Under the pieces are notes generated by a model that did not search any database, had not been told where the DNA came from, and saw only the letters and a list, made by a program, of their open reading frames with translations. Source: an uncultured Gemmatimonadales bacterium (GTDB lineage Bacteria > Gemmatimonadota > Gemmatimonadetes > Gemmatimonadales > GWC2-71-9). From it: a DNA stretch of 64,000 bases. Shown piece after piece: positions 756-57,348 of this stretch. The stretch covers positions 352,001-416,000 of the forward strand of contig CAVUAK010000001.1 in assembly GCA_963739455.1 (NCBI GenBank), given 5' to 3'. Made by a program: the position numbers and the translations under genes. Positions within the stretch are counted from its first letter, which is position 1. Every line of letters begins with the position of its first letter.

Positions 756-783
756 CCTCACTCCTCACCCCTCACCCCTCACG
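756..783 (+). repeat. 4 x heptamer CCTCACN at the hisC/hisB junction
   Basis: CCTCACT CCTCACC CCTCACC CCTCACG; on the minus strand it supplies the hisC TGA (779-781) and runs into the AGGAGG SD of hisB. Confidence 0.9.
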
Positions 784-1868
784 CAGTTCCTAGAATCTCG
801 GCCAACGCCCGTTCCACCGCCACCATGTCCCCATCCGTCCCCACCGAGATGCGCAGGCATTGCTCCAGCCCGGCCACGCCCGACACATCGCGCACCAGGA
901 TGTCATGCTCCTCGAGCAAGCGCCGGTACACCTCGCTCGGTGCCACCGAATGGAAGCGCACCAGGAAGAAGTTGCCGGCGCTCGGGTACACCGTGACACC
1001 TGGCAGCGCGCTGAGCCGTGGGAACGTCCGGTCGCGCGTCGCGATGATGCGCGACACCAGGTCCTGGCGTACGTCCATGTGCTCCAGTGCCACTTCCGCC
1101 GCCGTCAGCGTGAACAGGTTCACGTTGTACGGCAGCTTGGCCTTCGCGATCTCCCTCGCCATCCGCCGGATGCGCCAGCCCCACGCCGAACCGGAGCCCC
1201 GCCATGCCGAGCGCCTTGGAGAAGGTGCGCAGCACGACGACCCGGTCCGATGATGCCAGCGCACCCATTGCGTCCGCCCCGCCGAAATCGATGTACGCCT
1301 CGTCGCACAGCACCAGCGCCCCGGTCTCGGCGAGCACGCGCTCCACGGCACCCTGCGGCAGCACGCTGCCGGTCGGGTTGTTGGGCGAGTTGAGCACCAC
1401 CACCTTGGCCCGCTCTCGCACCGCAACGTCGATGAGGCGGTCCATGTCGTACTGGAATGCGTCATCGAGCGGCACCGGCACGTAGCGCCCGCCCGACACT
1501 GCCGTCAGGACGCGATAGAGCGAAAAGGTCGGGGCCGGTGCCACCACGGCGTCGCCCGGCTCCACCGTCACCGCGAGCGTCGCCTGGATCAGCTCGTTGG
1601 AGCCGTTCCCCGCGAGGATGCCGTCGGCCGGCCAGCGGAACCACTCGGCGAGCCGCTCGAGCAGCCTCGCCGGCACGAACTCAGGATAGCGCGGCCACGA
1701 GGCGCGGGCCACGCGCTCCACGATCTCGCGCTTGAGCGAGTCGGGGAGGTCGTACGGACTTTCGTTCTGGTTGAGTTTGCGTCCCGCGTCGAGTGCCGCG
1801 AGGGTGTACCCGGGCTGCGCCCTGACCGATGCCTTGATCAGGTCGAGCGCATCGGGCTCGTTGCTCAG
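779..1868 (-). CDS. hisC: Histidinol-phosphate aminotransferase (one frameshift near 1164, probably assembly error)
   Basis: KLNQNESPY, GNGSNELIQ, NSPNNPTG, DEAY, RTFSKALGMAGLR motifs across ORFs 903..1721 and 779..1465; in-frame 5' extension to a CTG at 1868 overlapping the upstream TGA. Confidence 0.9.
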
Positions 1869-4136
1869 ACCCGGCGGCGGCCCAGCACCGCCTCGAGCCG
1901 CGCCGAGAGCGCGCGGGCGCGGAAGGGCTTGGTCAGGAAGTCGTCGGCACCCATCTGGAAGACACGCACTTCGTTGTCCTCGTCACCCTTGGCCGTGAGC
2001 ACGATCACCGGGATCTGGCTGGTGGACGGCCGCGACCGGAGCCGCTGCAGCACGCCGTACCCGTCGATGCCGGGCAGGTTGAGGTCGAGCATGATCAGGT
2101 CGGGCGCGCTCCGGTCCACCTCATCCAGCGCCTGCGCACCGTCGCGCGCCTCAGCCACCTTGTAGCCCTCGCGCTCGAGCAGGTCCTTCATCACCCGGCG
2201 CAGCTGGTCCTCGTCTTCCACCAGCAGCACCATGCGGCCCTTGCCGCGGCCGGCCCACCGGGTCGTCGATGACCGGCGTGATCGCATCGTCCAGCAGCTC
2301 GAAGGAGAGGTCCACCCCCGGTCGCCGCCGGGCGGCGCCAGCGTGGCGACGCCGTTGCTGGCCGGCTCGACCGGCGGCATCGCCGGCTGCTGGCCGGACA
2401 CCCGGAACGGCGCCGGCGTCGGCACCCGGCCGATGCCGAAGCCGCCGGCCCGGTCGTCGTGCGGCACGTCGGTGACGCGGAGCAGCTCCTCCATGCGTCG
2501 TCTCGCCGTTGAGCACATGCACCAGGCCGCTCTCCCACAGCGACTTCATCCCCGAGTGACGCGCCGCCTCGGCGATCTTGTCGGCCGTGGCGCCGGCACC
2601 GATGCGCCGCTCGATCTCGGGATTCATCGTCAGCACCTCGACGATGCTGAAGCGGCCGCGGTAGCCCGTCATGGCGCAGTCGGGGCAGCCCACCGAGCGG
2701 TACAGCACCGCGCCCTCGGGGATGTAGCGCTTGATCCGGGTCGGCACCGCGTCGCGCGCTTCCTGCCGGCAGAGCGGGCAGAGGCGGCGCATCAGCCGCT
2801 GCGCGACGACGCCGCGCAGCGCGGTGGCGATCTTGTACGCCTCCATGCCCATGTCCACGAGGCGCGTCACCGCGTTCGGCGCGTCGTTGGTGTGGAGCGT
2901 GGAGAGCACCAGGTGGCCCGTGAGCGACGCCTGCACCGCGATCTGCGCCGTCTCGTGGTCGCGAATTTCGCCGACCAGCACCACGTCGGGGTCCTGCCGC
3001 AGGATCGAGCGCAGCGCCGTCGCGAACGTCAGCCCCGCCTTCTCGTTGACCTGCACCTGCACGATGTTCTCGCCCAGCCGGTACTCGACCGGGTCCTCGA
3101 CCGTGACGATGTTGACGCCCTCGCTCTGCACCATGCGGAGCGCGGAGTACAGCGTCGTCGTCTTGCCCGAGCCCGTCGGGCCGGTGACGAGGATGATGCC
3201 TTCCTTGTTCGTCAGCAGCTTCCCGATCTGCTCCCGCTCGTCCTCGGACATGCCGAGCGAGTCGAGCGACAGCACCGTCGCCTTGGCGTTCAGGATCCGG
3301 ATGACGACCTTCTCGCCGTGCGTCGCCGGCAGCGTCGAGATGCGCAGGTCGACCGGCGAGCCGTTCACCGAGACACGGGCGCGCCCGTCCTGCGGCCGGC
3401 GCCGGTCGGCGATGTCGAGCCCGGACATGATCTTGATGCGGGAGATGAGCGGCACGCCGGCGCTGCGCGGGATCTTCATGACCTGCCGCAGCACGCCGTC
3501 GATGCGGTAGCGCACCACGACGCCACCCTCCACCGGCTCGACGTGCACGTCGCTCGCCCGGCTGGAGATGCCGTCGGCCAGCATCATGTCCACCAGCCGC
3601 ACGATCGGCGCGGTGCTCGCCTCTTCCGCCGAGGCGGCGACGTCGGCCGGTTCGTCCTCGAGCTGTACGTCCGCATCCTCGAGGCCGCCCAGGATCTTGT
3701 GCACCGCCTCGTCGGCGCCGCCATAGAGCATCTCGGCGCGCTCGCGGATCTTCGACGGCGACGCCAGCAGCATGCGCACTTCGCGTCCTGTCGCGAACGC
3801 GAGCATCTTCTCGGCGTCGATGTCGAATGGATTGGCGGTGGCGACTTCGAGGAAGGAATCCGTCATCCGGAGCGGCAGCACGTTGAAGCGCCGCACCAGG
3901 TTTTCCGGCAGGTTCTCGCGCACCCTGACGTCGAGCACCCCAATTTCCGCCACCGGCAGGCGGAAGCGCTTGGCGATCGCCGCCAGGATCAGGTCGTCCG
4001 TCGTCAGCCGACGCTGGACCAATTGCTCCCAGAGGGACACCGTCGCCATCCCGGATTCCGACCGGACGGCATCGATGGCACCCTCAGGCAAAAGGACCTG
4101 AACCGTGGCAACCAGCCACTCGTCGTTGAACGCCAT
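1865..4136 (-). CDS. GspE/PilB-family secretion/pilus ATPase with C-terminal response-regulator receiver domain (frameshifts at about 2490, 2315, 2255)
   Basis: N-terminal T2SSE_N-like domain, ASDVHVEP, Walker A GPTGSGKTTT, LRQDPDVVLVGEIRD, TGH...STLHTN, CxxC..CxxC; then REC: LLVEDE..LIMLDLNLPGIDG..LTAK..TKPF. Confidence 0.8.
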
Positions 4137-4292
4137 GAACTCCTGACTCGCCAGTGAAGCCTGCGACCCTGACTGAAGCTAACTATACCTCCCGCAAGAC
4201 CATAGCGGCGTGCAGGGTGCCTTCAGGGGCCCCCGTGGCTTGCTGCCCGGGCGCGCCCGCCGGTACCTTCCCGCCCTCCCCACAGCCACCTC

Positions 4293-4904
4293 ATGACACG
4301 ACTCCGCGGGCATCTTAGCAGGACGCGTTCCAATGCCCGGGGATGGGCCACCCTGGCACTGGCCCTGGCCGCGGCCTGCGGGGGACGGCGCGGCGTCAAC
4401 ACCTCCTCCCGCCCTGAGGAGACTGTCGAACGCACCCTGGCGCAGTCCGACGTGTGGGTCCTGGAGGCCGGAGGCACCCCGCCCGACGACACCACCCTCA
4501 CGCTCATCGCCGGCCAGGCCCGGGTGGTCGTGCTGCGCAACGGTGCCCCCGACCTCGCCACCTTTGCGGTCCTGATCTTTCCCGACAGCGCACTCAAGGC
4601 CGAGGCCGGCACCCCGGTGGAGCTGACGCTGCATGTGCGCCCCGGCGTCTACGGCCTCGATATCGACTGCAAGGCCGAGACGGTGGGTGCCCGCATCATG
4701 TTCAAGTATGCTCGCCACTTCGAGGCACCTATCGAGGCATACAAGAAGTACGGCAGCAACGAGGCTTTCGAGCGGCAACTCGCCATCGGGCGGCTCAATG
4801 GCGACAGCACGATGCTCCTGCTCGCCACCCGGCGCCCCAACCAGGACAACCTGAGCGCGCTGATCAAGGGCAACGGCGCCTACGTGGTGGCGGGCCCCCG
4901 ATGA
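4293..4904 (+). CDS. Hypothetical lipoprotein
   Basis: Hydrophobic signal ending in LAAAC lipobox; stop overlaps the trpE start (ATGA). Confidence 0.7.
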   Translation: MTRLRGHLSRTRSNARGWATLALALAAACGGRRGVNTSSRPEETVERTLAQSDVWVLEAGGTPPDDTTLTLIAGQARVVVLRNGAPDLATFAVLIFPDSALKAEAGTPVELTLHVRPGVYGLDIDCKAETVGARIMFKYARHFEAPIEAYKKYGSNEAFERQLAIGRLNGDSTMLLLATRRPNQDNLSALIKGNGAYVVAGPR

Positions 4905-6392
4905 AGAGTCGCTTCGAGGACTTCGCCGAGCGCGCCGCGCGGGGTGGCATCGTCCCCGTCACCCGCGAAGTGGTGCTCGACGGCGATACGCCCGTATCGG
5001 CCTTCCAGAAACTCCACCGCGGCCGCTACGGTTTCCTCCTGGAATCACTCGAGGGTGGCGAGCGCTGGGCCCGGTACACCTTCCTCGCCACTGACCCGCG
5101 GGAAGTGTTCGAGTACCGCGACGGTGGCGTTCGTCGCTGGTCGGCGGCCGGAGGGTGGGGCCCCCTCACCCCTCACCCCTCACCCCTCACCCATCTGGGC
5201 GAGGTCATGCGCGCCCATCCGCCCGCCCATGTGCCGGGATTGCCACGCTTCACCGGCGGTGCCGTCGGGTTCATGGGCTACGACGTGGTGCGCACGCTCG
5301 AGAGCTTGCCCGATGCCCCGCCCGACGACCGCGACCTGCCCGACGCGCTCTTCATGGTGGTCGACACTCTCCTGGTGCTCGACAACATCTACAATCGCGC
5401 CACCGTCATTGCCTCCGTCGAAGTGACGCCCGGTGCCGATGCCGCAACGCTGAGGCAGGGCTTTGACGACGCCGAGGCGCGCATTGACCTCTGGCTCAGC
5501 CGCCTCGAGTCGCCCAGCCAGGTGCAGCCCCTCGCCATGGAGCCGGTGGCGATGCCCCGCTCCACGTCGCCCTACCCCGACGACACCTTTCGCGCCGACG
5601 TCTCGCGCATCAAGGAGTACATCGCGGCCGGTGACATCTTCCAGGCGGTGCTCTCGCGGCGCATCGACCTCCCCGCGCCGCCACCATTTCTCGCCTATCG
5701 GTATCTCCGGGCACTCAACCCGGCGCCGTACCTTTACTACCTGCAGTTTGACGATATCTGCATCGTGGGCAGCTCCCCCGAGGTGCTGGTGCGCGTGGAG
5801 GACGGCGAGGTGGTCGTCCGGCCCATTGCCGGCACCCGGCCCGCGGGGCGCCACGCCGGAGGACGACGCCGCCATGGAGGCGGAGCTCGTCGCCGACCCG
5901 AAGGAACGGGCCGAGCACCTCATGCTGGTGGACCTGGGGCGCAACGACGTCGGCCGGGTGGCCGAGTACGGCACCGTACGCCTTACCACCTTCATGACGG
6001 TGGAGCGATACTCTCACGTCATGCACCTCGTCAGCGAAGTGCGGGGACGCCTCCGCCCCGGTATCGACGCCCTCGCGGCACTCGGCGCCTGCTTCCCCGC
6101 AGGCACGGTGAGCGGCGCCCCCAAGGTGCGGGCGATGGAGGTCATCGATGAACTGGAGCCCACCCGTCGCGGTCCCTATGCCGGCGCCGTCGGCTATGTC
6201 AGCTGGGGCGCGCTCACCCTCGATACCGCGATCGCCATCCGCACCTGCGTCATGAAGGACGGGCGCGCCTGGGTGCAGGCCGGTGCCGGCGTGGTCGCCG
6301 ACTCCGATCCGATGACCGAGTGGCGCGAGACGGAGGCGAAGGCGCGCGCCGTGCTTACCGCCCTCGCACTCGCCGCCCGGGGTCACGCATGA
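4901..6392 (+). CDS. trpE: Anthranilate synthase component I (frameshift near 5840)
   Basis: [83 protein letters not shown] motifs. Confidence 0.9.
5164..5191 (+). repeat. 4 x CCTCACC heptamer inside trpE (encodes [11 protein letters not shown])
   Basis: Perfect tandem; same unit as 756-783. Confidence 0.9.
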
Positions 6393-7967
6393 GCGAGACG
6401 GTCTTTCGCTTGATCCGCACCAACGGCCCCGAGGCGTTCGAGCTCGCGGCCGGCAACTCGTACGTCCTCGGCCGCGGCCCCTCGAGCGACTTCCCGGTGG
6501 CCGACCCCACCATCTCCCGGCGTCACGCCGAGCTCCGCGTGGAGTCCGATGCACTGGAGATCGTCGACCTCGGCAGCAGCAACGGCACCCAGGTCAATGG
6601 CAACAAGATCGCGCGCGGGCGTGCCGCGGCCTTCGATACGCTGACCTTCGGGCGCGCCACCTTCCGCGTCGAGCCGCTGGAGACGGGTCCCCGCTCGGCC
6701 GGCGGCACCATCGTGCGCCAGGTCAGGGTCGAGGGTGGACGCGACGCCTTCGCGCACCTCGATGCTCACTCCGAGCGAAGCCTGCTCAAGCTCGGTGACG
6801 CCGATGCCGCCGCGCGGCAGGCCCGCAAGCTCGAGCTGCTGCTCGATCTTTCCCAGCGCCTCTCGGGCGAGCTCGATCACGAGCGCCTGCTCGAGACGAT
6901 CGTGCACACCGCGTTCGAGGTGCTCGCGGTGGATCGGGTCGCCATCCTCCTGCTCGACGTGGCGAGTGGCAAGCTCGTGCCCCGCATGAGCCGGAGCCGC
7001 ATCGGCAACCTGCCCGCAGAAGCGGTGCCCCGCTCCATCGTCGACACCGTCGTCGCCGGCCGCGTGGCCGTGCTCTCCGACAATGCAGTCGCCGACAGCC
7101 GCTTCAGCGGACAGTCGATCCTGCGCCAGAGCGTGCGCAGCGCCATGTGCACACCCCTCATGGCCAGCGCGGAGCAGGTGCTCGGCATTCTCTACGTCGA
7201 CAGCGTCACCGCCACCAACTCGTTCAGCGACGAGGATCTCCAGTTCCTCATCGCGTTCGGTGGTATCGCGGCCGCCGGGCATCCGCGCCAGCATGCAGGC
7301 CGACGAGCTGCAGGAGCAGGCCATCGTGCGCGGCAGTTTCGAGCGCTACTTCGCGCCCGGGGTGGCCGCCGAGATCGCGCGCACCGCCGGCGCGACGCAG
7401 CTGGGTGGCGAGCGCCGCAAGATCGCCGTGCTGTTCAGCGACGTGCGCGGCTTCACCCGTCTCGCCGAGGGCATGACCCCCGAGGCCCTGGCCAAGCTCC
7501 TCTCCGAGTACTTCACGGAGATGGTCGAGGTGGTGTTCGAGCACGGCGGCACCCTCGACAAGTTTGTCGGCGATGCCATCATGGCCCTGTGGGGTGCACC
7601 CCAGGCGCAGGACGACGCCCCCGATCGCGCCGTGCGCGCCGCGCTCGCCATGCAGGAGGCGCTGGCACACCTGAACGCCCGCTGGCTCGCGGCCGGGCGG
7701 CCCGCACTCGGCGTGGGCATCGGCATCAATTTCGGTGAGGTATTTGTCGGCAACATCGGCAGCCACCGCCGGCTGGAATACACCGTGCTCGGCGACGTCG
7801 TGAACGTCGCGGCGCGCCTCTGCGCCGAGGCGGGAGCCGGGGAGATTCTCGTGGCTGATGGGGTTCGCGCAGCGACCTACGGCGGATGGAACTACGACGC
7901 GCTGGAGCCGATGGCCCTCAGCGGACGGGAGGAGAAGGTGAACGTCTTTCGGGTGGTTTCATCCTGA
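6389..7967 (+). CDS. FHA + GAF + class III adenylate/guanylate cyclase (frameshift near 7280)
   Basis: FHA ([17 protein letters not shown]), GAF ([23 protein letters not shown]), cyclase ([32 protein letters not shown]). Confidence 0.9.
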
Positions 7968-7989
7968 GCGCAGCGAAGGATCGCCCTGC

Positions 7990-8436
7990 TTGCGCATAGT
8001 CCTCCAGCGCGTCTCGAGCGCCTCGGTCACGATCGACGGCGAGGTGACTGGCGCAATCGGCACCGGCTTCTGCCTCCTGGCTGGCTATGCCCCCGATGAC
8101 ACTCCCGATGTCGTGTCATGGCTCGCCGAGAAAGTCGCCGGCCTTCGCCTCTTCAGCGATGCCGATGGCAAGATGAACCTCGGCCTCACCGATGTCGGCG
8201 GCGCGGTCCTCGTCATCTCCCAGTTCACGCTCTACGGCGATGCCTCGAAGGGCCGTCGTCCCTCCTTCATCGCCGCCGCGCGCCCGGAGATCGCCATTCC
8301 GCTGCACGATCAGTTCATCGCTGAACTTCGCGCCAGCGGCCTCACCGTTGCCACCGGGCGCTTTGGCGCCGACATGAAGGTGGCGCTCGTCAACGACGGT
8401 CCCGTCACCCTGATCCTCGAGCGCAACGCCGCATGA
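7990..8436 (+). CDS. dtd: D-aminoacyl-tRNA deacylase
   Basis: [25 protein letters not shown] motifs. Confidence 0.96.
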
Positions 8437-9002
8437 TTCCACCCCTGGTGCTGGCGTCCGCATCGCCCCGTCGCAAGCAACTGCTGGAGATGCTCGGCAT
8501 TCCCTGCACCGTCGTTCCGTCCCGCGTCCCCGAGGTTCGCATCGCTGGGGAAAAGGCGATCCCCTACGCCGAGCGGCTGGCGCAATCAAAGGCCCTGAGC
8601 GTGGCGGGCGATCTCGTCCTCGCCGCTGACACGATCGTGGTCTCCGGGGACAGCATCCTGGAAAAGCCCGCCGATGAGACGGACGCGTTCCACATGCTCT
8701 CGCGGCTTCGCGGACACTCGCACAAGGTCGTCACAGCGGTGGCGCTTTCCCACATGCGCCAGCTCCGGCTCAGGACCGATGTCACCAAGGTCACCTTCCG
8801 GCACGTGTCCGATGATTTCATCCGCGCCTACATCGCCACCGGCGAACCGATGGACAAGGCCGGCGCCTACGGCATCCAGGGCTACGGCGCCGCCCTCGTC
8901 GAGAAGGTGGAGGGCGATTTCTTCGGGGTGATGGGCCTGCCGGTGCGGCTGGTGCTCGACCTCCTCGCCGAGGCCGGATTCGACTACACCTTCAGGTCCT
9001 AG
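8433..9002 (+). CDS. maf: Maf-family nucleoside triphosphate pyrophosphatase
   Basis: [31 protein letters not shown] motifs. Confidence 0.95.
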
Positions 9003-9035
9003 AACGAGAAACGCTCCCGGCTTCAGCCGGGAGCG
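9001..9035 (-). terminator. Intrinsic terminator between convergent maf and glmS
   Basis: Stem CGCTCCCGGC (9012-9021) / GCCGGGAGCG (9026-9035), loop TTCA; minus-strand tail TTTCTCGTTCT. Confidence 0.75.
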
Positions 9036-9039
9036 CCCG

Positions 9040-9062
9040 TTCCCTGTTTCCCTGTTTCCTGT
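9040..9062 (+). repeat. About 3 x TTCCCTGT just after the glmS stop
   Basis: TTCCCTGT TTCCCTGT TTCCTGT; related to the CCTGTTC array at 25986. Confidence 0.75.
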
Positions 9063-9063
9063 C

Positions 9064-10890
<1,827 letters not shown>

Positions 10891-10903
10891 CGTTCACTCC
10901 TTC

Positions 10904-12280: not shown

Positions 12281-12312
12281 CGTTTCTCGGTGTAAGGTCG
12301 GGCTAGAATCTA

Positions 12313-12386: not shown

Positions 12387-12421
12387 CTGACTAGGCTTCC
12401 CCCTCCTCAAGCCACCCGTCC

Positions 12422-47339: not shown

Positions 47340-47358
47340 GCTTCTCCTATCGGTCTAC

Positions 47359-47390
47359 TTCACGTCTTCACGTCTTCACGTCCTCACGTC
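47359..47390 (+). repeat. 4 x octamer (T/C)TCACGTC after the nfu stop
   Basis: TTCACGTC x3, CTCACGTC; abuts the TAG at 47391-47393. Confidence 0.95.
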
Positions 47391-47648
47391 CTAGACTGAT
47401 TCCACGCTCCGCACCTCAGGTACCGCCTGTTTCAGGCGCACCTCGATCCCCTGCTTCAGCGTCACCGAAGAAGCCGAGCAGCCGTGGCAGGTGCCTCCCA
47501 GCCGGAGCAGCAGGGTGCCGTCGGCCTCGTCGAAATCCACCACTTCCACCTGGCCGCGATGGGAGGCGATGTAGGGCCGCAGCGTATCGAGCGACTGCTC
47601 GATCCGCTCCATCACCGTCAATCCGGGGTCCGTTCTCAATTCCGACAT
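47391..47648 (-). CDS. NifU C-terminal domain (Nfu) Fe-S carrier
   Basis: LRPYI..H.G.VE, L.G.CHGC.AS..TLK.GIE. Confidence 0.92.
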   Translation of the reverse strand: MSELRTDPGLTVMERIEQSLDTLRPYIASHRGQVEVVDFDEADGTLLLRLGGTCHGCSASSVTLKQGIEVRLKQAVPEVRSVESV

Positions 47649-47679
47649 AGTCACTCGGCAATATGTTCCGGTCAGCCGA

Positions 47680-48709
47680 TCAGGTCAACGCTGGCACCCG
47701 CGAACCCAGGAAGTCCCGCGCGGCCGCCAGCACGATCGCCTGGACTTCCGGCAGGGTGCCTTCCACCGAGAGGCCCGCGGCCTTGGTGTGCCCGCCACCC
47801 CCAAAGTGCTTCGCAAACCCGGCGACGTCTACGTCACCCACCGACCGCAGCGACACCTTCACCCGGCCATGCGCGATCTCGCGGAAGAGCAGCGCCATCC
47901 GCACGCCCTCGACCGAGCGGGGGAATTCCACCACGCCGTCCAGGTCATCGGGTGACACCCCCCACCGCTCCATGGCGCCGGGCGGCACCGTGATCCAGGC
48001 GAGCCCGAGCTCGGGTTCCACCACCAGCGTCTCGAGCGCGTCGGCCAGCAGGCGATGGCGACCCTCCGGCACGTTGGCGTAGACCTCGAGGTAGATCTCC
48101 TCCGGGTCGACGCCGATCTCGAGCAGGTCGGCGGCCACGCGCAGGACACGCGGGTCGCGTATTGCTGAAGCGGAAGCCACCGGTGTCCGTGAGCACCGCC
48201 ACATACAGCGCGCGCGCCGCGCTCACCGGGATGTCCCACCCATTCGCCTCGGCGAGCTCGACCACCAACTCGCCGGTGGCGCTCGCCTTCGGGTCCACGT
48301 AGCGCGGTCCCGGCGGCAGCGTCCCTTCGCTCACATGATGGTCGATGCACGCCACCGGGACGCCGCGATCGCGCACCGCGTCGTGCAGCATGCCGAGCCG
48401 GCCCAGGTCGGCGATGTCCAGAACGAGGATGAGGTCCGCGCGCCGGATCTCCTTCACCGCCTCCGCCGTCTTGTCCACGCCGGGCAGGTCGTGCAGCAGG
48501 AAGTCGAATCGCGGCGGTGTGGGCGTCGGGTTGGTGATGACCGGATGTGCGCCGAGCGCGCGCAGCAGGTGCACCATCGCCACTTCACTGCCGAGCCCGT
48601 CGCCATCGGGATTGACGTGGGTCGTGATGCAGATGCGCTGACCCGGCTTGATCGCGGCGGCGAATGCGGCGGCCGATGCGAGCTTCTCGGCGGAGAGAGA
48701 GATTGTCAT
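47680..48709 (-). CDS. nrnA: DHH/DHHA1 phosphoesterase (frameshift near 48160)
   Basis: H.NPDGD.LGS, IDHH, DTGGF, KVSLRS, GGGH..AAG. Confidence 0.88.
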
Positions 48710-48740
48710 GGACCCCAAAGCTAAGTGTGACGGTGATGGC

Positions 48741-48779
48741 AGAAAAGACGAGGGGACGGAGAAACGCTCCGTCCCCTCG
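48741..48779 (-). terminator. Intrinsic terminator after the guaB-permease operon
   Basis: 13-bp stem CGAGGGGACGGAG / CTCCGTCCCCTCG, 5-nt loop, minus-strand tail TCTTTTCT. Confidence 0.85.
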
Positions 48780-48799
48780 CCGCATGCCGTCGGTGCACC

Positions 48800-50341
48800 C
48801 TACTTGTTCGTCTTGTTCAGCACCGAATGGTTCCGCCCGTAGAGGAAGTAGATCAGCAAGCCGATGAAGAGCCAGACGAAGAGCCGGATCCAGGTATCGA
48901 CCGGCAGCAGCGCCATCATGCCAAGGCACGTCAGGATGCCAAGGATCGGCACCAGCGGCACCAGCGGCGTACGGAAGGGCCGCGGGAGGTCCGGCTGCTT
49001 CTTCCGCAGCACGATGATGCCGCCGCAGACGATCACGAAGGCCAGCAGTGTACCGATGGACACCAGTTCGCCCAGCAGCCCGATCGGCAGGGTGCCCGCA
49101 ATCACCGCCGCCACCAGGCCGGTGATGATCGTCGAGATATACGGCGTCTGGAACTTCGGGTGCACCTTCGCGAACACCGGCGGGAGCAGGCCATCGCGCG
49201 CCATGGTGAAGAAGATGCGCGGCTGGCCCATGAGCATCACGAGCACCACCGAGGCAAGGCCGGCGATGGCGCCGATGTTGACGAAGAAGCCCAGCCACTT
49301 GAGCGCCGGCCCCGCCTTCTCGATGGCGACGAACACCGGGTGCGGCACGTTGAGCTCGGAGTAGTGTGCCAGGCCGGTCATGACGAGTGCCATCAGGATG
49401 TACAGCACCGTGCAGATGGCAAGCGAGCCGAGCATGCCGATCGGCAGGTCACGCTGCGGGTTCTTTGCCTCCTGGGCCGCGGTGCTGACCGCGTCGAAAC
49501 CGATGTAGGCGAAGAAGATCACCGCGGCGCCGCGGATGATGCCGCTCCAGCCGTAGTGCCCGACCTCACCGGTGTTCACCGGGATGAAGGGATGCCAGTT
49601 GGCGGTGTTGACGTACTTGAAGCCGAACCCGATGACGAGCAGGACGATGGCCAGCTTCACGAAGACGACGATGTTGTTGAATCGCGCCGACTCCTTGATG
49701 CCGACGACCAGCAGCGCGGTGATCAGCAGGACCAGCACGACAGCCGGCAGGTTGACCAGGCCGTGCCCGAGGGTGAAGCCCTTGGACACGCAATCGGCCA
49801 CCGGGATGAGCGTGTGACTGACCGCATCCACCGCCACGCCGCCCGACGCGGGGTTGATGCAGATGTCGGAACGGACCAGGGTATGCGTTCCCTGCACACT
49901 GAACGGCGCGCCCGTCAGCGCCGGTGGCAGGGTGAAGCCGATCTCGGCCATGAACGCCGTGAAGTAGCCCGACCAGCCCACCGCGACCGTCGAGGCGGCG
50001 AAGAGGTATTCGAGGATCAGGTCCCAGCCGATGATCCAGGCCACGAGCTCACCCAGCGTGGCATAGCCGTACGTGTAGGCACTGCCCGCCACCGGGATCA
50101 TCGATGAGAACTCGGCGTAGCAGAGTCCGGCGAAGAGGCACCCGATCCCGGCGAGTACGAACGAGAGGACGATGCCTGGCCCGGCGTATTGCGCCGCCGC
50201 AGTGCCCGTCAGGACGAAGATGCCGGCGCCGATGATGGCGCCGATGCCGAGCAGCACCAGGTTGGTCGCGGTGAGGACGCGCTTGAGGCCGCCCTCCTCG
50301 CCCCGGAGGTCGGCCATCGACTTTGTGCGGAAGTAATCCAT
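48800..50341 (-). CDS. APC-family (CAT-like) amino acid permease
   Basis: GIGAIIGAGIF, CYAE, PVAGSAY.Y, FFAYIGFD, EAKNPQR, RPFR.P. Confidence 0.95.
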   Translation of the reverse strand: MDYFRTKSMADLRGEEGGLKRVLTATNLVLLGIGAIIGAGIFVLTGTAAAQYAGPGIVLSFVLAGIGCLFAGLCYAEFSSMIPVAGSAYTYGYATLGELVAWIIGWDLILEYLFAASTVAVGWSGYFTAFMAEIGFTLPPALTGAPFSVQGTHTLVRSDICINPASGGVAVDAVSHTLIPVADCVSKGFTLGHGLVNLPAVVLVLLITALLVVGIKESARFNNIVVFVKLAIVLLVIGFGFKYVNTANWHPFIPVNTGEVGHYGWSGIIRGAAVIFFAYIGFDAVSTAAQEAKNPQRDLPIGMLGSLAICTVLYILMALVMTGLAHYSELNVPHPVFVAIEKAGPALKWLGFFVNIGAIAGLASVVLVMLMGQPRIFFTMARDGLLPPVFAKVHPKFQTPYISTIITGLVAAVIAGTLPIGLLGELVSIGTLLAFVIVCGGIIVLRKKQPDLPRPFRTPLVPLVPILGILTCLGMMALLPVDTWIRLFVWLFIGLLIYFLYGRNHSVLNKTNK

Positions 50342-50379
50342 GCAGTGCCCTGGGTTGAGGGGTCGAGCTCAGAGTAGTG

Positions 50380-51894
50380 TCAGGAAACTCCGGCGGCGCG
50401 AGCGCGTTCGCGCTCCCGCTGCAGCGTGCTGTTGGAACGGCCGTAGGTGAAGTAGATCACCAGGCCGATGGCGAGCCAGATGGCCAGGCGCAGCCAGGTG
50501 TCGACCGGCAGCGTCGCCATGAGGCCGACGCACGCCAGCACACCAAGGATTGGCACCACCGGCATGAACGGCACCTTGAACGGCCGCTCCAGGTCGGGGC
50601 GCTTCTTCCGCAGGATGATCACGCCCACGCACACCAGCGCGAATGCCAGCAGGGTGCCGATGTTCACCAGCTGCCCCAGGATCTGGAGCGGCAGGAGCCC
50701 GGACGCCAGCGAAACGGCGAACCCCGTAAAGATCGTCGAGAGATACGGAGTGCGGAACTTCGGGTGCACCTTGCTGAACCAGCCGCCGATGAGCCCGTCC
50801 CGCGACATGGCGTAGAACACCCGGCTCTGGCCAAGCATCTGCACCAGCACCACCGACGCAAGGCCCAGCACTGCACCCACGTCGATGGACACACGGAGCC
50901 AGTCCGGGGCGCCGGTGCGCTGCATTGCCAGCGCCATCGGCGCCGGCACGTTGAGCTCGGTGTACGACACCATGCCGGTCAGCACCGCCGACACCACGAC
51001 GTAAAGAATGGTACAGACCACCAGCGAGCCGAGAATGCCGATCGGCATGTCGCGCTGGGGATTCTTTGCTTCCTGTGCCGCCGTGCTCACCGCGTCGAAC
51101 CCGATGTAGGCGAAGAACACCAGCCCCGCGCCCCGAAGCACGCCCGACCAGCCGAACTCACCCCACACCCCGGTGTTCGGCGGGATGTACGGCTTCCAGT
51201 TGGCCGGCGTGAGGTGCATGACGCCCCAGCCCACGACCACCAGGATGATCGCGACCTTGAGGACGACGATGAGGTTGTTCAGGTTCGCCGATTCCTTGAT
51301 GCCGATGACCAGGACGATCGTCATCAGCACCGACACCAGGATCGCCGGCAGGTTGACCAGCGAGCCGGTGGTGTTCCATCCCACGTGCGCGCATCCCGCA
51401 ACGGCTGCCTGCACATTCGGGTTGGTGCACCACTGAAAGGGCGCCTGCGCCAGCGCCGCGGGAATGTGAATGCCGAAAATGTCGAGCAGGCTCGCCAGGT
51501 GACCCGACCAGCCGACTGCTACAGTGGCCGCGCCCATGGCATACTCGAGCACCAGGTCCCAGCCGATGATCCACGCCACCAGCTCGCCCATCGTGGCGTA
51601 CGAGTAGGTGTAGGCGCTGCCGGCCACGGGCACCGTGCTCGCCATCTCCGCGTAGCAGAGCCCGGCGAGCGTGCACGCGATGCCCACGATGACCATGGAG
51701 ATCGGCACCGCTGGCCCTGCATGCAATGCCGCGGCGACGCCGGTAAGGACGAAAATGCCGGCGCCGATGATGGCACCAATGCCGAGGAAGACGAGGTTCG
51801 CCGCCGACAGGGTGCGCCGCAGGCCGCCGGCTTCCTCGCCGGCATCTGCCTCTGCGCGCAACGCCGCAATCGACTTCGTCGCCCAGATGCTCAT
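50380..51894 (-). CDS. APC-family (CAT-like) amino acid permease, paralogue of the neighbour
   Basis: Same motifs as 48800..50341. Confidence 0.95.
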   Translation of the reverse strand: MSIWATKSIAALRAEADAGEEAGGLRRTLSAANLVFLGIGAIIGAGIFVLTGVAAALHAGPAVPISMVIVGIACTLAGLCYAEMASTVPVAGSAYTYSYATMGELVAWIIGWDLVLEYAMGAATVAVGWSGHLASLLDIFGIHIPAALAQAPFQWCTNPNVQAAVAGCAHVGWNTTGSLVNLPAILVSVLMTIVLVIGIKESANLNNLIVVLKVAIILVVVGWGVMHLTPANWKPYIPPNTGVWGEFGWSGVLRGAGLVFFAYIGFDAVSTAAQEAKNPQRDMPIGILGSLVVCTILYVVVSAVLTGMVSYTELNVPAPMALAMQRTGAPDWLRVSIDVGAVLGLASVVLVQMLGQSRVFYAMSRDGLIGGWFSKVHPKFRTPYLSTIFTGFAVSLASGLLPLQILGQLVNIGTLLAFALVCVGVIILRKKRPDLERPFKVPFMPVVPILGVLACVGLMATLPVDTWLRLAIWLAIGLVIYFTYGRSNSTLQRERERARAAGVS

Positions 51895-51920
51895 GCACGT
51901 ACCTCCGGCGTGTGTCTGAC

Positions 51921-51945
51921 GACTGCCGACTGCAGACTGCCGACT
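51921..51945 (+). repeat. 3.5 x heptamer GACTGC(C/A) after the guaB stop
   Basis: GACTGCC GACTGCA GACTGCC GACT, overlapping the TAA at 51945-51947. Confidence 0.85.
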
Positions 51946-53402
51946 TATTTCGAGTAGTTCGGTGCCTCGCGCGTGATCGTCACATCGTGGGGATGCGACT
52001 CACGGAGGCCGGCGGTGGTGATCTGGACCATTTCCACGTCGCGCTGCAGCGACGCGATATCGGCGACGCCGCAGTACCCCATGCCACTGCGCAATCCGCC
52101 AACCATCTGGAAGAGCACGTCGCCCACAGGGCCGCGGTAAGGCACGCGGCCCTCGATGCCCTCGGGCACCAGTTTGGACGGTGACATCTCGCCGTCCTGG
52201 AAGTAGCGGTCGGCAGACCCGTCCTGCATCGCCGACAGGCTGCCCATGCCACGAATCATCTTGAAACGACGGCCCTCGGCGAGCACCGACTCACCGGGAC
52301 TCTCCTCGGTGCCCGCAAGCATCGAGCCCATCATGACACACGACGCCCCGGAGGCCAGTGCCTTCACGATGTCGCCGGAGTACTTGATGCCGCCGTCGGC
52401 CACGATGGGCACGTCACCCGCGCCCCGCACGGCGTCCATCACCGCGGTGATCTGCGGTACGCCGACACCGGTAACGACGCGCGTGGTGCAGATGCTGCCC
52501 GGCCCGATGCCGACCTTCACCGCATCGACGCCGCGGCGCACCAGTTCGCGCGCACCTTCCTCGGTGGCAACGTTGCCGGCCACGAGTTGCACGTCGGGAA
52601 ATCCCTGGCGGATGGCATCGACGGTCATGAGGACGCCGTCACTGTGGCCATGCGCCGAATCGATGACGAGCACGTCGACGCCGGATTGCACCAGCGCAGC
52701 GGCCCGGGTGTGCGCCTCAGGGCCGGTGCCCAGCGCCGCGGCCACGCGCAGGCGGCCGTGCTGGTCCTTGTTCGCGTCAGGGTGCTCACGGCGCTTGAAG
52801 ATGTCCTTCACCGTGATGAGCCCGCGGAGCACACCCTGAGCGTCCACCACCGGCAGCTTCTCGATGCGGTGCTTCGCCAGGATGCGCTCCGCCTCGTCGA
52901 GCGTCGTGCCCACCGGGGCGGTCACCAGGCGGTCCTTCGTCATGGCGTCGCGGATCGGCTGGTCGAGGTTGCGCTCGAACTGCAGGTCGCGGTTGGTGAT
53001 GATACCGATCAGCCGGCCCTCGCCGTCCACGATCGGAACGCCGGAGATCTTGAAGCGGCGCATGAGCCCGTGGGCCTCGCGCAGCGGCCGGTCGGCGCCG
53101 AGCGTGATCGGGTTCATGATCATCCCGCTCTCGCTGCGCTTCACCCGGTCCACCTCCGCCGCCTGGCGGTCGATGGACATGTTCTTGTGCAGCACGCCGA
53201 TGCCACCGGAACGGGCCATGGCAATCGCCATGTCGGCCTCGGTAACGGTGTCCATGGCGGCGGCGACGAACGGGATATTGAGCGGGATGGTGCGGGTGAA
53301 GCGGCTGACGATCGAGACATCGCGCGGGTGCACGCTCGAGTGCCGGGGCACGAGCAGCACGTCATCGAACGTGAGCGCGATACCAGGTCGGATTCGACTC
53401 AT
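51945..53402 (-). CDS. guaB: IMP dehydrogenase
   Basis: [20 protein letters not shown] pair, [29 protein letters not shown]. Confidence 0.98.
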
Positions 53403-53512
53403 GTGAGGCGCTGGCGGACGGGGGACTGGCTGGCGATTCGATTGTCTGGCGAACTGGGAGGCAACATCCTGAAGCCTACGCCCCGGGACACCCTAAATCA
53501 AGCCGAGCGGGG

Positions 53513-55351
53513 TCACGAAAGGAGCCCGCCCACGTCGCCCGGCCCCTCCTCGTTGCGCCCCCGGGGAATACCCCGTGGCGCTGCGCCGAACAATGCGACG
53601 CTCCTGATTTCACTGTCGATGGCGAGCAGCAGGCCATCGAGCTCCTCGATCGCCTTCCTGAGCGCATACCGGAACATGTAGCGATAGCTCGCGAATCCGA
53701 GGACGCCGGCCACGAGCACGCCACCCGCGAGCGGGAGCGCCAGCGCGGCGGCGGCGATGCCGGCCTTCGCCGCGGCGGTGAGGCCGATGCCGCCGCCAAT
53801 GACGCCGGTGCCGCCGGTCCACCAGCGGCTGAAGCGATAATTGGCGCGCACGCCCGGCCGGAGATCCCCATAGATGGAAATCTCGGTGCCGCCGTCACCG
53901 GCCAGGGCATGCAGCCGCACCTGGAGCCGGCGCAATTCGATCTGCTGCAGTCGGTAGCTGAACATCGACATACCCTGCGATGACAGGAACTGTGCCGTGA
54001 CGGCGGCAGGCACGTCGAACAGCAGGATCCCGCCGTCCAGGGGGTGGCCCCCCTGCGACTCGAGGAAGCGCATGCCATACGGATGGCCCGGCGCAATGCG
54101 GCCGAGCGCCTCCAGCACGCGGGCCGGCGATGCCCGGATCACCCGCGACACCGACACGCTCCGCTGGCTGGAACCCAGCGCAACGGTCGCCGCCCGATCC
54201 TCCCGGTCCGTCATCACCGAGGCTGCCACGGCTGTTGGCGCCGGCAGTTCCGCCAGTGCGAGAGCCACGAATTCGTCGCCGATTCCCACCTCAGCCGCGG
54301 CTGCGGCGACGTCGGCGAGCCGGTAGCCATCGGTCGGCACGGCCCCGTCCGGCGCGCCGGGCAGCAACTCCTTCCGGGATCGCGCCTCGATCCGGCTCGC
54401 CGCCTCCATCTGCAGCTGTGCCGCCCGGAGCCACACCGCCTGGGCCTGCCCCGCGCTCAACACCTGGTCGAGTGCCATGCCACCCGCGGGCGTCACCGAC
54501 ACCTCCTGCTCCAGCGCGGCGGCCAATGCGGCGGCCAGCGCTTCTCCCGAGGGATGCCGCTCGTCGGGCGCCTTCGCGAGCGCGCGGTCGATGACGCGCG
54601 CGAGACTCTCGGGAACATCGGGCGCGACGTCGCGCAAGCGTGGCGCCGGCTTCGTCGCGTGCATGACCAGGACGGCGCCGGGAGCCACCGCCGAGAATGG
54701 CAGCTGGCCCGCCAGCGCCTGGAATCCAATGACGCCAAGCGCATACAGGTCGCTTCGACCGTCGACGGCGTCGCCGGTGGCCTGCTCCGGGCTCATGTAG
54801 TGCACCGAGCCCAGCACGTGACCCTCCTGCGTCAGCGACGTCGCGCGGATATCGCGCGCAATGCCGAAGTCGGTGACGAGCACCCGACCCGTGGCCCGCT
54901 CCAGCATCACGTTCTCCGGCTTGATGTCCCGGTGAATGACCCCGCGCGCGTGTGCGTAAGCCAGTGCCCAGGCCACTTCGCGAAGGATGCGCACCGTCTC
55001 CGCCGGTGACAGGCGACCACGCGCCTTGATATGGTCAGCCAGCGTCTCCCCGTCCACGAACCCCATGGCGAAGAACGCGAAGCCGTTGCTTTCATCGGCG
55101 TGGTAGATCGGGACGATGTTGGGGTGGGAAAGCTGCGCCGCCGTGCGGGCCTCGCGCAGGAATCGCTCGCGCAGCTCGGGAGAACGGGCGAGATCAGGTG
55201 GCAGCACCTTGAGCGCAACCTGGCGCTCGAGCCGCAGCTCGCGCGCCAGGTAGACGACCCCCATGCCGCCCCGGCCGAGTTCACGCTCCAATCGGTATCG
55301 CCCGTCCAGCGCCTCAGCGAGCCCGACGAGCGGTTGAAGCGTTCCCGTCAT
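53513..55351 (-). CDS. Hanks-type Ser/Thr protein kinase with C-terminal membrane domain
   Basis: LGRGGMGVVY, VALK, HRDIKPEN, DFGIA, YMSPEQ, SDLYALG; two hydrophobic segments near the C-terminus. Confidence 0.93.
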   Translation of the reverse strand: MTGTLQPLVGLAEALDGRYRLERELGRGGMGVVYLARELRLERQVALKVLPPDLARSPELRERFLREARTAAQLSHPNIVPIYHADESNGFAFFAMGFVDGETLADHIKARGRLSPAETVRILREVAWALAYAHARGVIHRDIKPENVMLERATGRVLVTDFGIARDIRATSLTQEGHVLGSVHYMSPEQATGDAVDGRSDLYALGVIGFQALAGQLPFSAVAPGAVLVMHATKPAPRLRDVAPDVPESLARVIDRALAKAPDERHPSGEALAAALAAALEQEVSVTPAGGMALDQVLSAGQAQAVWLRAAQLQMEAASRIEARSRKELLPGAPDGAVPTDGYRLADVAAAAAEVGIGDEFVALALAELPAPTAVAASVMTDREDRAATVALGSSQRSVSVSRVIRASPARVLEALGRIAPGHPYGMRFLESQGGHPLDGGILLFDVPAAVTAQFLSSQGMSMFSYRLQQIELRRLQVRLHALAGDGGTEISIYGDLRPGVRANYRFSRWWTGGTGVIGGGIGLTAAAKAGIAAAALALPLAGGVLVAGVLGFASYRYMFRYALRKAIEELDGLLLAIDSEIRSVALFGAAPRGIPRGRNEEGPGDVGGLLS

Positions 55352-56823
55352 GCCTTATCGGCGCGTCGCCAGAGCAGGTATACCGGAATGCCGAGTGCCA
55401 CGATCAACAACCCGAACGCGGAGAACTTCCGCTTGTCAGGATCTACCAGCAGGACCACCAGCAGGAAGGCGATCGACAGGATGTAGAGCGCCGGGACCAC
55501 CGGGTATCCGAATGCCTTCACCGGCCGCGGCAGGTCGGGCTGCAGCTTCCTCAGCCGGAACAGCGCCACCGTGGTGAGCAGGTAGAAAATGAGTGCGGCG
55601 AAGATGACGTAGTCGAGCAGCTGTCCGTATGTCCCGGTGAGGCAGAGCGCCATCGCCCAGGCCGCCTGGGCCAGCAGGCCGAAGGTCGGCGTGTGCCTGG
55701 TCGGGTGCAGCGTGCCCGCCGGCTTGAAGAACAGCCGGTCGCGCGCCATCGCGTAGTACACCCGCGGTCCCGCCAGGATGAGCCCGTTGTTGCAGCCAAA
55801 CGTGGAGATCAGGATCGCGATCGCCATCACGATGGCACCCGTCGGGCCAATCACCGCCTCGAGCGCCGCCGTGCCAACGCGGTCCTGGGACGCGTAGCTG
55901 ATGCCACGCTCGAACGCATCGGCGCCGGTGGGCTGGCCACCGAACGGCAGCACGTTGAGGTACGCCACGTTCGCGAGGATGTACAGCAGGCTGACCAGGC
56001 CGGTACCATAGGCAAGCGCCCGCGGCAGGTTCTTCTGTGGCTCGCGCACCTCTGCCGCCGCGAAGGTCACGTTGTTCCAGGCGTCACTGGAGAAAAGCGA
56101 GCCCACCATCGCCGCGCCCACCACCGGGAGCATCGCGAGCCCCCAGGACTTGGCACCCCAGAAGGTGTCGAAGTTCATCGCGGAAATGGCCGGCTGCCGG
56201 AAGATGAACAGCCCGAGCATGATGAGCGCCACCAGTGCGCCCACTTTCGCCACCGTGAACACCGTCTGGATAGCGGCACCGAGCCGCACACCGCGCATGT
56301 TCACGACGGTGAGCACCGCGATCATCACCACCGCCACCATGCGCTGGTTCGAGAGGCCGAGCTCGATCGTGCCGCCCGGCAGGTTGAGCGAGCCGAGCTT
56401 GAGGAATACGTCGGGCGTCACCCCGGGCAACAGCACCGCGAGGAACTTGGCGAACGCCACCGCCACTGCGGCGATGGTGCCGGTCTGGATGACGGTGAAC
56501 AGCGTCCAGCCATAGAGGAATCCGGCGGCGGGCGAGAGCCCCTCGCGCAGGAAGACGTACTGGCCGCCCACGTTCGGCAGCATGGCCGCGAGCTCGGCGT
56601 AGGCAAGCGCACCCGCCAGTGTCATGAGCCCCGTCAACAGCCACACCAGCAGCAGGCCACCAGGCCCCCAGCCCGCCACCTGGCGGCTGATATCGGCGGA
56701 GACGATGAAGATGCCCGAGCCGATCATGGAGCCCACGACGAGCGACGTGGCGGCAAGTGGGCCGATGCCGCGCACAAACTGGTCGCGGTCCGGCGCGGGT
56801 GGCGCGTCGTTCGGGTTGGTCAT
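55348..56823 (-). CDS. APC-family (LAT/SteT-like) amino acid permease
   Basis: GSMIGSGIF, YAEL, GGQY, WNN....EV..P.KNLP, RP..AFGYP. Confidence 0.93.
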   Translation of the reverse strand: MTNPNDAPPAPDRDQFVRGIGPLAATSLVVGSMIGSGIFIVSADISRQVAGWGPGGLLLVWLLTGLMTLAGALAYAELAAMLPNVGGQYVFLREGLSPAAGFLYGWTLFTVIQTGTIAAVAVAFAKFLAVLLPGVTPDVFLKLGSLNLPGGTIELGLSNQRMVAVVMIAVLTVVNMRGVRLGAAIQTVFTVAKVGALVALIMLGLFIFRQPAISAMNFDTFWGAKSWGLAMLPVVGAAMVGSLFSSDAWNNVTFAAAEVREPQKNLPRALAYGTGLVSLLYILANVAYLNVLPFGGQPTGADAFERGISYASQDRVGTAALEAVIGPTGAIVMAIAILISTFGCNNGLILAGPRVYYAMARDRLFFKPAGTLHPTRHTPTFGLLAQAAWAMALCLTGTYGQLLDYVIFAALIFYLLTTVALFRLRKLQPDLPRPVKAFGYPVVPALYILSIAFLLVVLLVDPDKRKFSAFGLLIVALGIPVYLLWRRADKA

Positions 56824-56864
56824 GTATTGGTGGGTAAGGGGTGGGCGGGAGCGGGGCGCGAGCC

Positions 56865-57239
56865 TCAGCTCGCGCTTTCACGTGGCGGTTCGAGCTTCTC
56901 GGGCGCCTTCGGCACTGGCGGTGCGGGACGGCTTGGCGGTGCCTGTGCCACGTTGATGGCCTCGTCCACCACCGCCTGGCCGGCGGCCGCGAGGCCCTTC
57001 ATCACCTTGGTGGCGCTGTCCATCAGCCCCATCGTGCCGGAGATCGCCTGGATCGGGAGCTTCCCCGCCCGCATCGTGTCTTCAACCGTCTCGGTGATCT
57101 TCGCCAGGAACCCGGTGGGCCGCTGCCGCTCCGCGTAGCGGCTCTCGAGAAACTCGACGAAATCGAGCACCTGGTAGGCCCGGTCGTCGGGCAGGGTATC
57201 GAGCGCGCGCAGGATGCGCTGCTTCAGAAGGTCGTTCAT
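56865..57239 (-). CDS. Hypothetical protein (DUF2281-like N-terminus)
   Basis: L..LP.....QVLDFVEFL..RY pattern; SD GGAGG. Confidence 0.65.
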   Translation of the reverse strand: MNDLLKQRILRALDTLPDDRAYQVLDFVEFLESRYAERQRPTGFLAKITETVEDTMRAGKLPIQAISGTMGLMDSATKVMKGLAAAGQAVVDEAINVAQAPPSRPAPPVPKAPEKLEPPRESAS

Positions 57240-57322
57240 GTCATTGCCTCCGGGTCGCCGCCACTACGCAGGGACGCTGGAAATGTGTCGCACCCGGCGA
57301 ATCCCTGCCAATCGCCACCGCC

Positions 57323-57348
57323 CTACCCGTCCTCCCCGCCTTCACGCC
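57323..57348 (+). repeat. Degenerate nonamer array at the antiporter stop
   Basis: CTACCCGTC CTCCCCGCC TTCACGCC; resembles the 12313-12386 family. Confidence 0.5.

Follow-up and report, generated by a model that had tools for sequence, protein, structure and literature searches.

Genome-wide families of tandem repeats with units of 7–9 nucleotides (nt) have been described in bacteria before, and the repeats reported here are of that published kind. In Xanthomonas and Nostoc, heptamers of the types GGGAATC and GGGGA(C/T)T form arrays of about four units, mostly intergenic and near stop codons (Rehm et al. 2015, PMC4692102); the same paper gives 70 convergent inverted heptamer pairs for Xanthomonas campestris pv. 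campestris (Xcc), and a row of its supplement places a GGGAATC array over the start of XCC0516. TAACTGA repeats in Beggiatoaceae, cyanobacteria and Bacteroidetes are spread genome-wide and patchily across phyla, overlap stop codons and are described with no mechanism evident to their author (MacGregor 2015, PMC4679880). Intervening sequences of 23S rRNA hold an open reading frame (ORF) of the family PF05635 (S23p) in a stem–loop, with heptamers in variable number upstream (Warrier et al. 2016, PMC4990558). For the origin of 7–9-nt bacterial repeats, the proposals in this literature are polymerase slippage, G-quadruplexes (G4) or unknown regulators. Here we analyse a 64,000-nt stretch (the window) from an uncultured Gemmatimonadales bacterium, which holds many such arrays and a gene for a PF05635 four-helix-bundle protein. 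Its genome (G000; 3.6 Mb, 67% GC, four contigs, 83.7% complete; window at C1:352001-416000) was compared with congeners that include G001, G003, G006, G008, G009 and G010. We find that the repeat units match, unit by unit, cassettes built around PF05635 genes, and that array orientation and density track G/C skew domains that are independent of the replichores.

A genome-wide system of short tandem arrays

Across G000 there are 161, 67 and 83 exact arrays of 2.5 or more copies at periods of 7, 8 and 9 nt, compared with 6, 3 and 0 in the single codon-block shuffle that served as the null, and none occurs genome-wide at periods of 10–12 nt. A few units make up nearly all of them; merged by family, there are 385 arrays (family patterns were drawn up after the units had been seen; shuffle means are at most 1 per family). 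This large excess bears out a preliminary description of the window, made from its letters alone: the six unit families and the positions given for them are confirmed, and the arrays are not an assembly artefact, as orthologous sites in other assemblies carry arrays too. The arrays are a real, non-random system.

The preliminary description had also anchored the arrays on stop codons. Gene ends came from a hexamer gene caller built for this analysis (3,216 confident genes), by which low-GC genes are missed and some spurious stops introduced. On this basis, 131 of the 192 arrays in stop-holding gaps lie within 10 nt of the stop, and uniform placement in the same gaps gives 75.9. Stop anchoring is real but moderate: gene ends are preferred, not required, and 64 of the 385 arrays lie inside called genes. 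At all ten stops named for the window, an array begins in or just after the stop with its G-rich strand as the sense strand; the array at the antiporter stop (57342) is there, although it is degenerate, mixed and absent from the Tandem Repeats Finder (TRF) list. Where a stop codon falls inside an array, the array is G-sense in 44 cases and C-sense in 4. The units themselves account in part for this G-sense excess right at stops, since a stop triplet is present on the G strand of five of the nine unit variants, much as the stop overlap of TAACTGA repeats was put down to stops encoded by the unit (PMC4679880).

Some further arrays were noted in passing. Many kinase-like paralogs at about 91-280 kb on C1 carry GACTCAC/GACTGMC or CGCCTCA arrays at equivalent internal positions, and the G006 paralogs have none. 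A 21-nt degenerate unit of the type CCTCACGC.GT(T/C)GC.GTTC recurs at 26923-26976 in the window, at C3:66500-66700 and at 1678874 and 2565051 on C1, often beside CCTCAC arrays; it may represent an additional family with longer units. Groups of five to six closely spaced tRNA genes lie at C1:1362006-1362534, C1:1730715-1731387 and C3:281799-282348; an 8-nt array occupies a tRNA-cluster spacer at C1:1362087.

Array units match PF05635 cassettes

The PF05635 protein of the window matches TIGR02436 (E 4e-31), scores above the curated cut-off of its family and is 94% identical to a Gemmatimonadota protein. The only solved structure that matches it is PDB 2GSC (XCC0516, E 5e-21), and the Avd model NF033474 stays below its cut-off (E 2.6e-5, 24.5 bits versus 80). 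The gene has a GC content of 0.61, compared with 0.67 for the genome. G000 holds five PF05635 genes, and each of the five lies between inward-facing inverted arrays of its own unit, with the G-rich arm upstream and the C-rich arm downstream. The units differ from cassette to cassette: CCTAACG (window), CCTCAAGY, CCCTCCCCG, GACTGAC/GACTCAC and CCTCACC. A profile of our own and tblastn found no further copies in G000, and a weak match on C3 was discarded as an unrelated membrane ORF. The PF05635 gene is the only cargo seen between cognate arms 400–600 nt apart, with no transposase between the cassette ends. The gene of the GACTGAC/GACTCAC cassette (C1:2353000-2353430) is frameshifted in G000 and intact in G003 and G008.

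Arrays and cassettes go together across the genus. For four unit patterns in 12 genus genomes (overlapping matches counted, cassette arms included), all 11 genome–unit cells with a cassette of the matching or a sister unit have at least eight matches. Of the 37 cells without such a cassette, 32 have none, two have one match and three have many: CCCTGTT in G000 (41), CCGTTYA in G009 (15) and TCACGTC in G001 (17), in genomes that are 84%, 64% and 90% complete. CCCGTCT occurs only in the two congeners with a CCCGTCT cassette, and three congeners without PF05635 have no match to any of the four patterns. Kinship among the 12 genomes precludes a significance test on this table; the relatives' cassettes were drawn from 70 loci, of which three gave no match and two are G000's own. 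Since orthologs of the CCTCAAGY gene in G003, G006 and G008 carry TCACGTC arms and a CCCTGTT cassette is present in G009, every array family of the window has a cassette lineage in the genus. The unit-by-unit tie of repeats to PF05635 cassettes is well supported, and with it the connection to the four-helix-bundle family that the preliminary description had suspected. Two other partners suggested there were not found in G000: a GxxExxY protein (no match to PF13366) and a reverse transcriptase (RT; no match to PF00078 or TIGR04416 at E<=1, and no group II RT, in a genome 83.7% complete).

The cassette layout extends beyond the genus. Among 80 homologous loci from many phyla, an inverted shared 7-mer spans the gene in 33, compared with 0 of 284 shifted controls, and arrays flank both sides in 18, compared with two controls. 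Flavihumibacter has 93 matches to its cassette unit, and close pairs there keep the inward order seen here. Unit length clusters on a tree of 49 proteins labelled by hand (4 changes versus 15.4 when shuffled). When filled and empty alleles were compared for a target-site duplication, spacers looked more as if they had been replaced, in relatives that are only about 80–88% identical. In a single case (G020, C1:1188475-1192180), a PF05635 cassette lies about 130 nt from a dnaE2 start, divergently oriented.

Sites are reused by different units

Orthologous sites were compared by reciprocal mapping to 60 stretches of 20 kb, about one third of G006. Of 58 array sites, 26 also carry an array in G006, compared with 14 of 178 control gene ends, and at 14 of these 26 the family in G006 is a different one. 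At the 32 sites that are array-free in G006, the G000 sequence exceeds it by 27 nt or more in 16 cases and differs from it by no more than 9 nt in 12, which rejects overwriting always at constant length. G000 and G008 share one cassette between purD and fpg, G006 has another, G003 and G009 have none there, and relatives' contigs from two runs join purD to fpg without a cassette. The sampled stretches of G006 also hold GCGCCCT-type 9/10-nt and CCCCTCA arrays, with no cassette for them seen in that genome.

Inverted pairs face inward

Same-family inverted pairs within 120 nt are all inward, G arm first (34 of 34), in 21 tandem, nine convergent and four divergent gaps. Inverted remnants beside the 311 solo arrays show the same order (32 inward, 0 outward). 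Either arm order would fold a hairpin, yet only the inward one occurs, which points to a directional process. The C-rich arms that the preliminary description placed upstream of starts, at 12360, 13612 and 16469, are there, and they turn out to be the partner arms of inverted pairs. At C1:472334-472540, an inward CCCTGTT pair encloses an AT-rich 170-nt spacer without an ORF between divergent genes.

Array polarity follows local chromosome skew

Near stops, 156 arrays genome-wide are G-sense and 68 C-sense, so that the fixed polarity to the sense strand claimed in the preliminary description does not hold. The ratio of G-sense to C-sense solos in tandem gaps is 50:3 where the gene lies on the locally G-rich strand and 3:36 where it lies on the opposite one; the corresponding ratios inside genes are 28:1 and 2:25. 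These two-by-two tables reject gene-sense polarity, with a small residual sense effect (9 versus 1). With skew taken from four-fold sites of array-free genes, orientation agrees with local skew in 220 of 234 arrays at an absolute skew of at least 0.1, in 32 of 37 at 0.05–0.1 and in 21 of 40 below 0.05; in G006 the agreement is 57:14. Eight of the ten window stops belong to minus-strand genes, minus being the G-excess strand there, and the two plus-strand stops (13590 and 15995) lie in outer arms of inverted pairs. Replichore polarity is rejected as well: in regions whose skew runs against the replichore, the G-rich strand of solos is the lagging one by 53:7. Array polarity is chromosomal, not genic.

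Third-position skew on C1 of G000 switches sharply from plus to minus at about 80, 785, 1488 and 2455 kb. Around these four foci the G/C skew forms mirror-image domains, which do not depend on the replichores defined by FtsK-orienting polar sequences (KOPS). Replichore polarity was read from what we take to be the KOPS, dif and parS motif sequences. By KOPS there is one origin region, near dnaA (881 kb), with a dif-like site in C2, and KOPS keep their oriC polarity within opposing domains (4:11, 8:15, 12:4 and 24:10); with four switches on C1, the skew does not show just one sign change each at oriC and ter in step with KOPS. With distance from a focus, skew declines from 0.20 close by to 0.00 past 350 kb, and array density declines from 22.4 to 1.8 per 100 kb, not quite monotonically (Spearman 0.64, 72 bins). 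Orientation and density of the arrays both track these domains.

The skew is a near-pure exchange of G and C at four-fold sites (G 0.54/C 0.32 versus C 0.54/G 0.32); A, T and two-fold sites are nearly unchanged, which rejects deamination. Misassembly is an unlikely cause of the sawtooth pattern, as KOPS run continuously and contig C7 of G006 switches at about 1.91, 2.70 and 3.41 Mb, places syntenic with three of the G000 foci. The syntenic foci lie about 700–790 kb apart in two species; at the fourth, G006 has no strong domain. At orthologous genes, the skew on the G strand minus that on the C strand is 0.21–0.29 in eight PF05635-bearing members of the genus, G000 included; six genomes gave no value, and most congeners contribute few window genes where the G strand is also the leading strand. 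The domains are a trait of the genus. G027, from another family (20 stretches of 20 kb), has few arrays and no strong domains. ImuC/DnaE2 has been reported as a cause of G:C to C:G changes (PMC3901139); DnaE2 is present here, and it was rejected as the genus-specific cause because 14 of 19 relatives, members of the genus and outsiders alike, have a match over its cut-off. A literature search that reached few subscription journals found no published description of such domains.

A proposed mechanism and its rivals

These data are best read as the outcome of a process that copies or adds repeats in trans. The templated idea of the preliminary description survives to that extent, stripped of its RT and of gene-sense polarity. 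Our best explanation of the whole, on which we would bet neither way, is that each cassette protein makes a host polymerase extend DNA 3′ ends with tandem copies of the G-rich unit that goes with it. It starts from five observations: the cassette layout, the genome-by-unit match, the inward pairs, the reuse of sites by different units, and the way in which array orientation and density track the skew domains. The PF05635 protein would specify the unit, and G-rich units would be added in tandem at 3′ ends, a direction suggested because the G-rich strand runs 5′ to 3′ toward the centre in pairs, cassettes and domains alike. As no RT was found, synthesis is assigned to a host polymerase, possibly templated by the C-rich arm or its transcript. 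Two capped ends rejoined would give an inverted pair, or a cassette with the gene between them, and one extended end would give a solo array. Arrays would survive where tolerated: just after stops, beside terminators and in protein loops. Their direction would mark the strand that locally offers 3′ ends. Skew domains would then be places of recurrent ends, through break repair toward the foci or lagging-strand synthesis from auxiliary origins, and may mark recurrent break-repair or run-off synthesis around fixed foci.

Several results weigh against this explanation. All support is correlative, and from it we infer both protein binding and the synthesis steps. G000 has 45 arrays of the CCCTGTT/CCCTCTT group, yet no CCCTGTT cassette was found in it; for the most frequent 8-nt family (TCACGTC, 85), the only match is a cassette of a sister unit (TCAAGYC, 16), and the cells of G009 and G001 named above likewise hold arrays with no visible cassette. 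One PF05635 gene of G008 has no visible arms, 47 of the 80 distant loci fail the inverted-arm test, and in a Maribacter genome the cassette unit has only eight matches, so that spread is not universal. The agreement of arms with the protein tree is uninformative on recognition, as arms are inherited with the gene and linkage alone suffices. At the foci there is no shared gene, tRNA, palindrome or oriented motif, nor are the cassettes located there. Unit 7-mers are not enriched over synonymous shuffles in the coding DNA of the domains, on which grounds an origin of the skew from repeat fragments was also rejected. Three congeners without PF05635 still have a skew difference of 0.10–0.16 (few genes, more distant relatives); in 11 genomes from outside the genus, a few of them carrying 6–13 PF05635 copies, it ranges from −0.04 to 0.06. 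Because such PF05635-rich genera lack the difference, PF05635 alone does not produce the domains. Finally, the Xanthomonas repeats are reported to have no leading or lagging preference and to be sense-linked near stops (PMC4692102).

The main rival, somewhat unlikely in our judgement, needs no repeat-writing protein. Arrays would be born only as inverted pairs, from cassettes that landed, swapped and were lost through recombination, and strand-biased slippage with G/C mutation would erode the arm that opposes the skew, which explains the same polarity. The 37 intact pairs and the inward remnants fit this account, as does the purD–fpg cassette, which differs or is missing among G000/G008, G006, G003, G009 and the two relatives' contigs. 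The arm concordant with skew is longer in 20 of the 37 pairs; it is shorter in 13, however, a weak bias, and 279 of the 311 solos have no inverted remnant within 130 nt. In-frame arrays inside glmM, fpg and kinase genes are unlikely homes for a 500-nt cassette, and at some sites the unit changes while the length stays. At the other extreme stands a stronger form of our own explanation, which is attractive and still rather doubtful: an RT-free, telomerase-like bacterial system in which Avd-like pentamers, each with one 7–9-nt unit, would direct a host polymerase onto free 3′ ends. It would be the source of the heptamers in Xanthomonas, cyanobacteria and Beggiatoa, and the arrays of this genus would record a second, oriC-independent DNA synthesis from three or four foci about 700 kb apart, driving a pure G/C transversion skew over hundreds of kilobases.

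Selection for RNA or DNA sites at gene ends, as G4, terminator aids or sites for the four-helix protein on transcripts, appears improbable. Enrichment at stops, the residual sense effect, the separate hairpin enclosed by 7 of the 34 close pairs and the in vitro G4 folding of Xanthomonas repeats (PMC4692102) would suit it. Against this, it is chromosome position that sets the transcribed strand (arrays of genes on the C-excess strand are C-sense by 36:3), orthologous sites hold other units or none, GTCGGCA, GACGTGAG and GGCGTTA have no G3 tracts, and the authors of PMC4692102 report finding no regulatory role. More improbable still is the form in which the idea was first put, with transcription-coupled RT activity, templated by a short RNA, lengthening seeds at the 3′ ends of genes. 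PF05635 does have a homologue in Avd, the RT partner in diversity-generating retroelements (DGRs; PMC10053308), and the stop is often part of the first unit, but neither RT model matched in a genome 83.7% complete, polarity is not tied to transcription and Rfam has no match in the window. To independent local slippage or a long-read artefact we give almost no credence. The assembly does contain single-base indels that split genes; even so, a few units lie behind nearly all arrays, these units are genome-specific and track the cassettes, and the same sites carry arrays in other assemblies. As the preliminary description had argued, slippage alone is insufficient, and as a whole explanation it is already refuted, although it likely still adjusts copy number.

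Features of the window

The coordinates of the window's features are collected below.

Table 1. Cassette, arrays and skew domain of the 64,000-nt window
Feature	Position	Strand	Remark
PF05635/TIGR02436 Avd-like four-helix-bundle gene, 121 aa	16020..16385	-	cargo of the CCTAACG cassette
Cassette downstream arm, (CCTAACG)x6.9 on the gene strand	15987..16034	-	+ strand supplies the purD stop codon
Cassette upstream arm, degenerate, G-rich	16463..16491	-	adjoins fpg start; predicted to pair with the downstream arm (fold)
Gene-less inward inverted pair, 9-nt family	12312..12388	.	in the divergent glmM–metB gap; G arm 12312-12350, C arm 12360-12388
Gene-less inward inverted pair, 8-nt TCACGTC family	13583..13635	.	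G arm contains the metB stop
Solo CCTCACC array over hisC stop	756..782	+	C-rich on +
Solo CCCCTCA array	5162..5192	+	C-rich on +
Solo CCCTGTT-type array 3′ of glmS stop	9040..9063	+	
9-nt array within glmM coding sequence	11420..11449	+	
TCACGTC array within fpg	16698..16732	+	C-rich on sense
GACTCAC array within fpg	17102..17129	+	
Solo TCACGTC array between convergent genes	19657..19699	+	C-sense 4-5 nt past one stop, G-sense over the other
Adjoining CCCTGTT and TCACGTC arrays, ubiA-like stop	25985..26038	+	
Solo CCCAACG array, DUF62-like stop	42488..42517	+	
Solo TCACGTC array 3′ of nfu stop	47358..47390	+	
Solo GACTGCM array 3′ of guaB stop	51916..51945	+	
Degenerate mixed 8/9-nt array, antiporter stop	57310..57348	+	limits approximate; not in TRF list
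Skew domain, G-excess strand minus	1..64000	-	on +, skew at four-fold sites is -0.05 to -0.23; focus ~270 kb before the window

Individual sites repeat the genome-wide pattern of reuse. The gene-less 9-nt pair is absent from G008 and from one relative's contig and has other units in G006 and G009; the TCACGTC pair has a different unit in G006 and nothing in G003 or G004. After glmS, G006 carries TCACGTCC and five congeners a non-repeat spacer. At the glmM loop, G010 has its own two cassette units at the equivalent place. Within fpg, relatives carry other units at the TCACGTC site, with lengths that differ by multiples of 3, and at the GACTCAC site the length is near-constant (72–74 nt) while the units differ. 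Single-base indels absent from relatives split hisC (779-1721), metB (12422-13590) and fpg (16494-18577), the last of which they seemingly fuse to a uvrC-like gene; they are likely sequencing errors.

Comparison with known systems

A unit-by-unit match to one small protein family makes the origin of these repeats testable with one gene and one oligonucleotide, and it suggests a role for PF05635 outside DGRs and rRNA. Our literature search, again with few subscription journals in reach, found no report of a link between such cassettes and repeats. Skew domains of this sort, unrelated to the replichores, shared between species and predictive of both the place and the direction of repeats, would indicate a way of synthesising or repairing DNA in bacterial chromosomes that has yet to be described; they are also a warning that skew-based origin calls fail in this genus. 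For chromosomes of Gemmatimonadota, degraded GC skew has been described in a repeat-rich genome and ascribed to rearrangement (Tomasch et al. 2024, PMC11237797). That account and G000 agree in the strong strand bias of genes around ter, whereas we see mirror-image domains over intact KOPS polarity and three syntenic foci.

The arrays share with the heptamer long simple sequence repeats a genome-wide excess of a few mostly intergenic units, proximity to stops and convergent inverted pairs. The G-rich sense strand after stops reported for Xanthomonas is not found here, where genes on the C-excess strand show the reverse. In PMC4692102 the Xanthomonas heptamers form one family per genome and are read as G4, and its treatment of the repeats draws no link to XCC0516; here, there are six families, each traceable to a cassette lineage, and the skew domains set the direction in which arrays point. 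The Xanthomonas array at XCC0516, itself the solved four-helix bundle (2GSC), fits our explanation, as do the heptamers upstream of the S23p ORF. TAACTGA repeats lie mostly upstream of starts, and PMC4679880 considers S1, Csp and Csr candidates, with PF05635 and intervening sequences unmentioned in its discussion of them. With the 23S rRNA intervening sequence, the cassettes share a PF05635 ORF between complementary arms; they are not in an rRNA gene here, the window cassette lying between purD and fpg, and hundreds of gene-less arrays accompany them in trans.

DGRs, with a homologous four-helix protein and templated rewriting of DNA, are the nearest working analogy (PMC10053308). They differ in that no RT was found here, the Avd model stays below its cut-off and the product is tandem units rather than A-mutagenised copies. 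Telomerase adds short G-rich units in de novo telomere formation. The likeness to it, G-rich short units with 3′ ends facing the centre, would be one of function only: in G000 no RT or template RNA was identified, and the arrays are internal and short.

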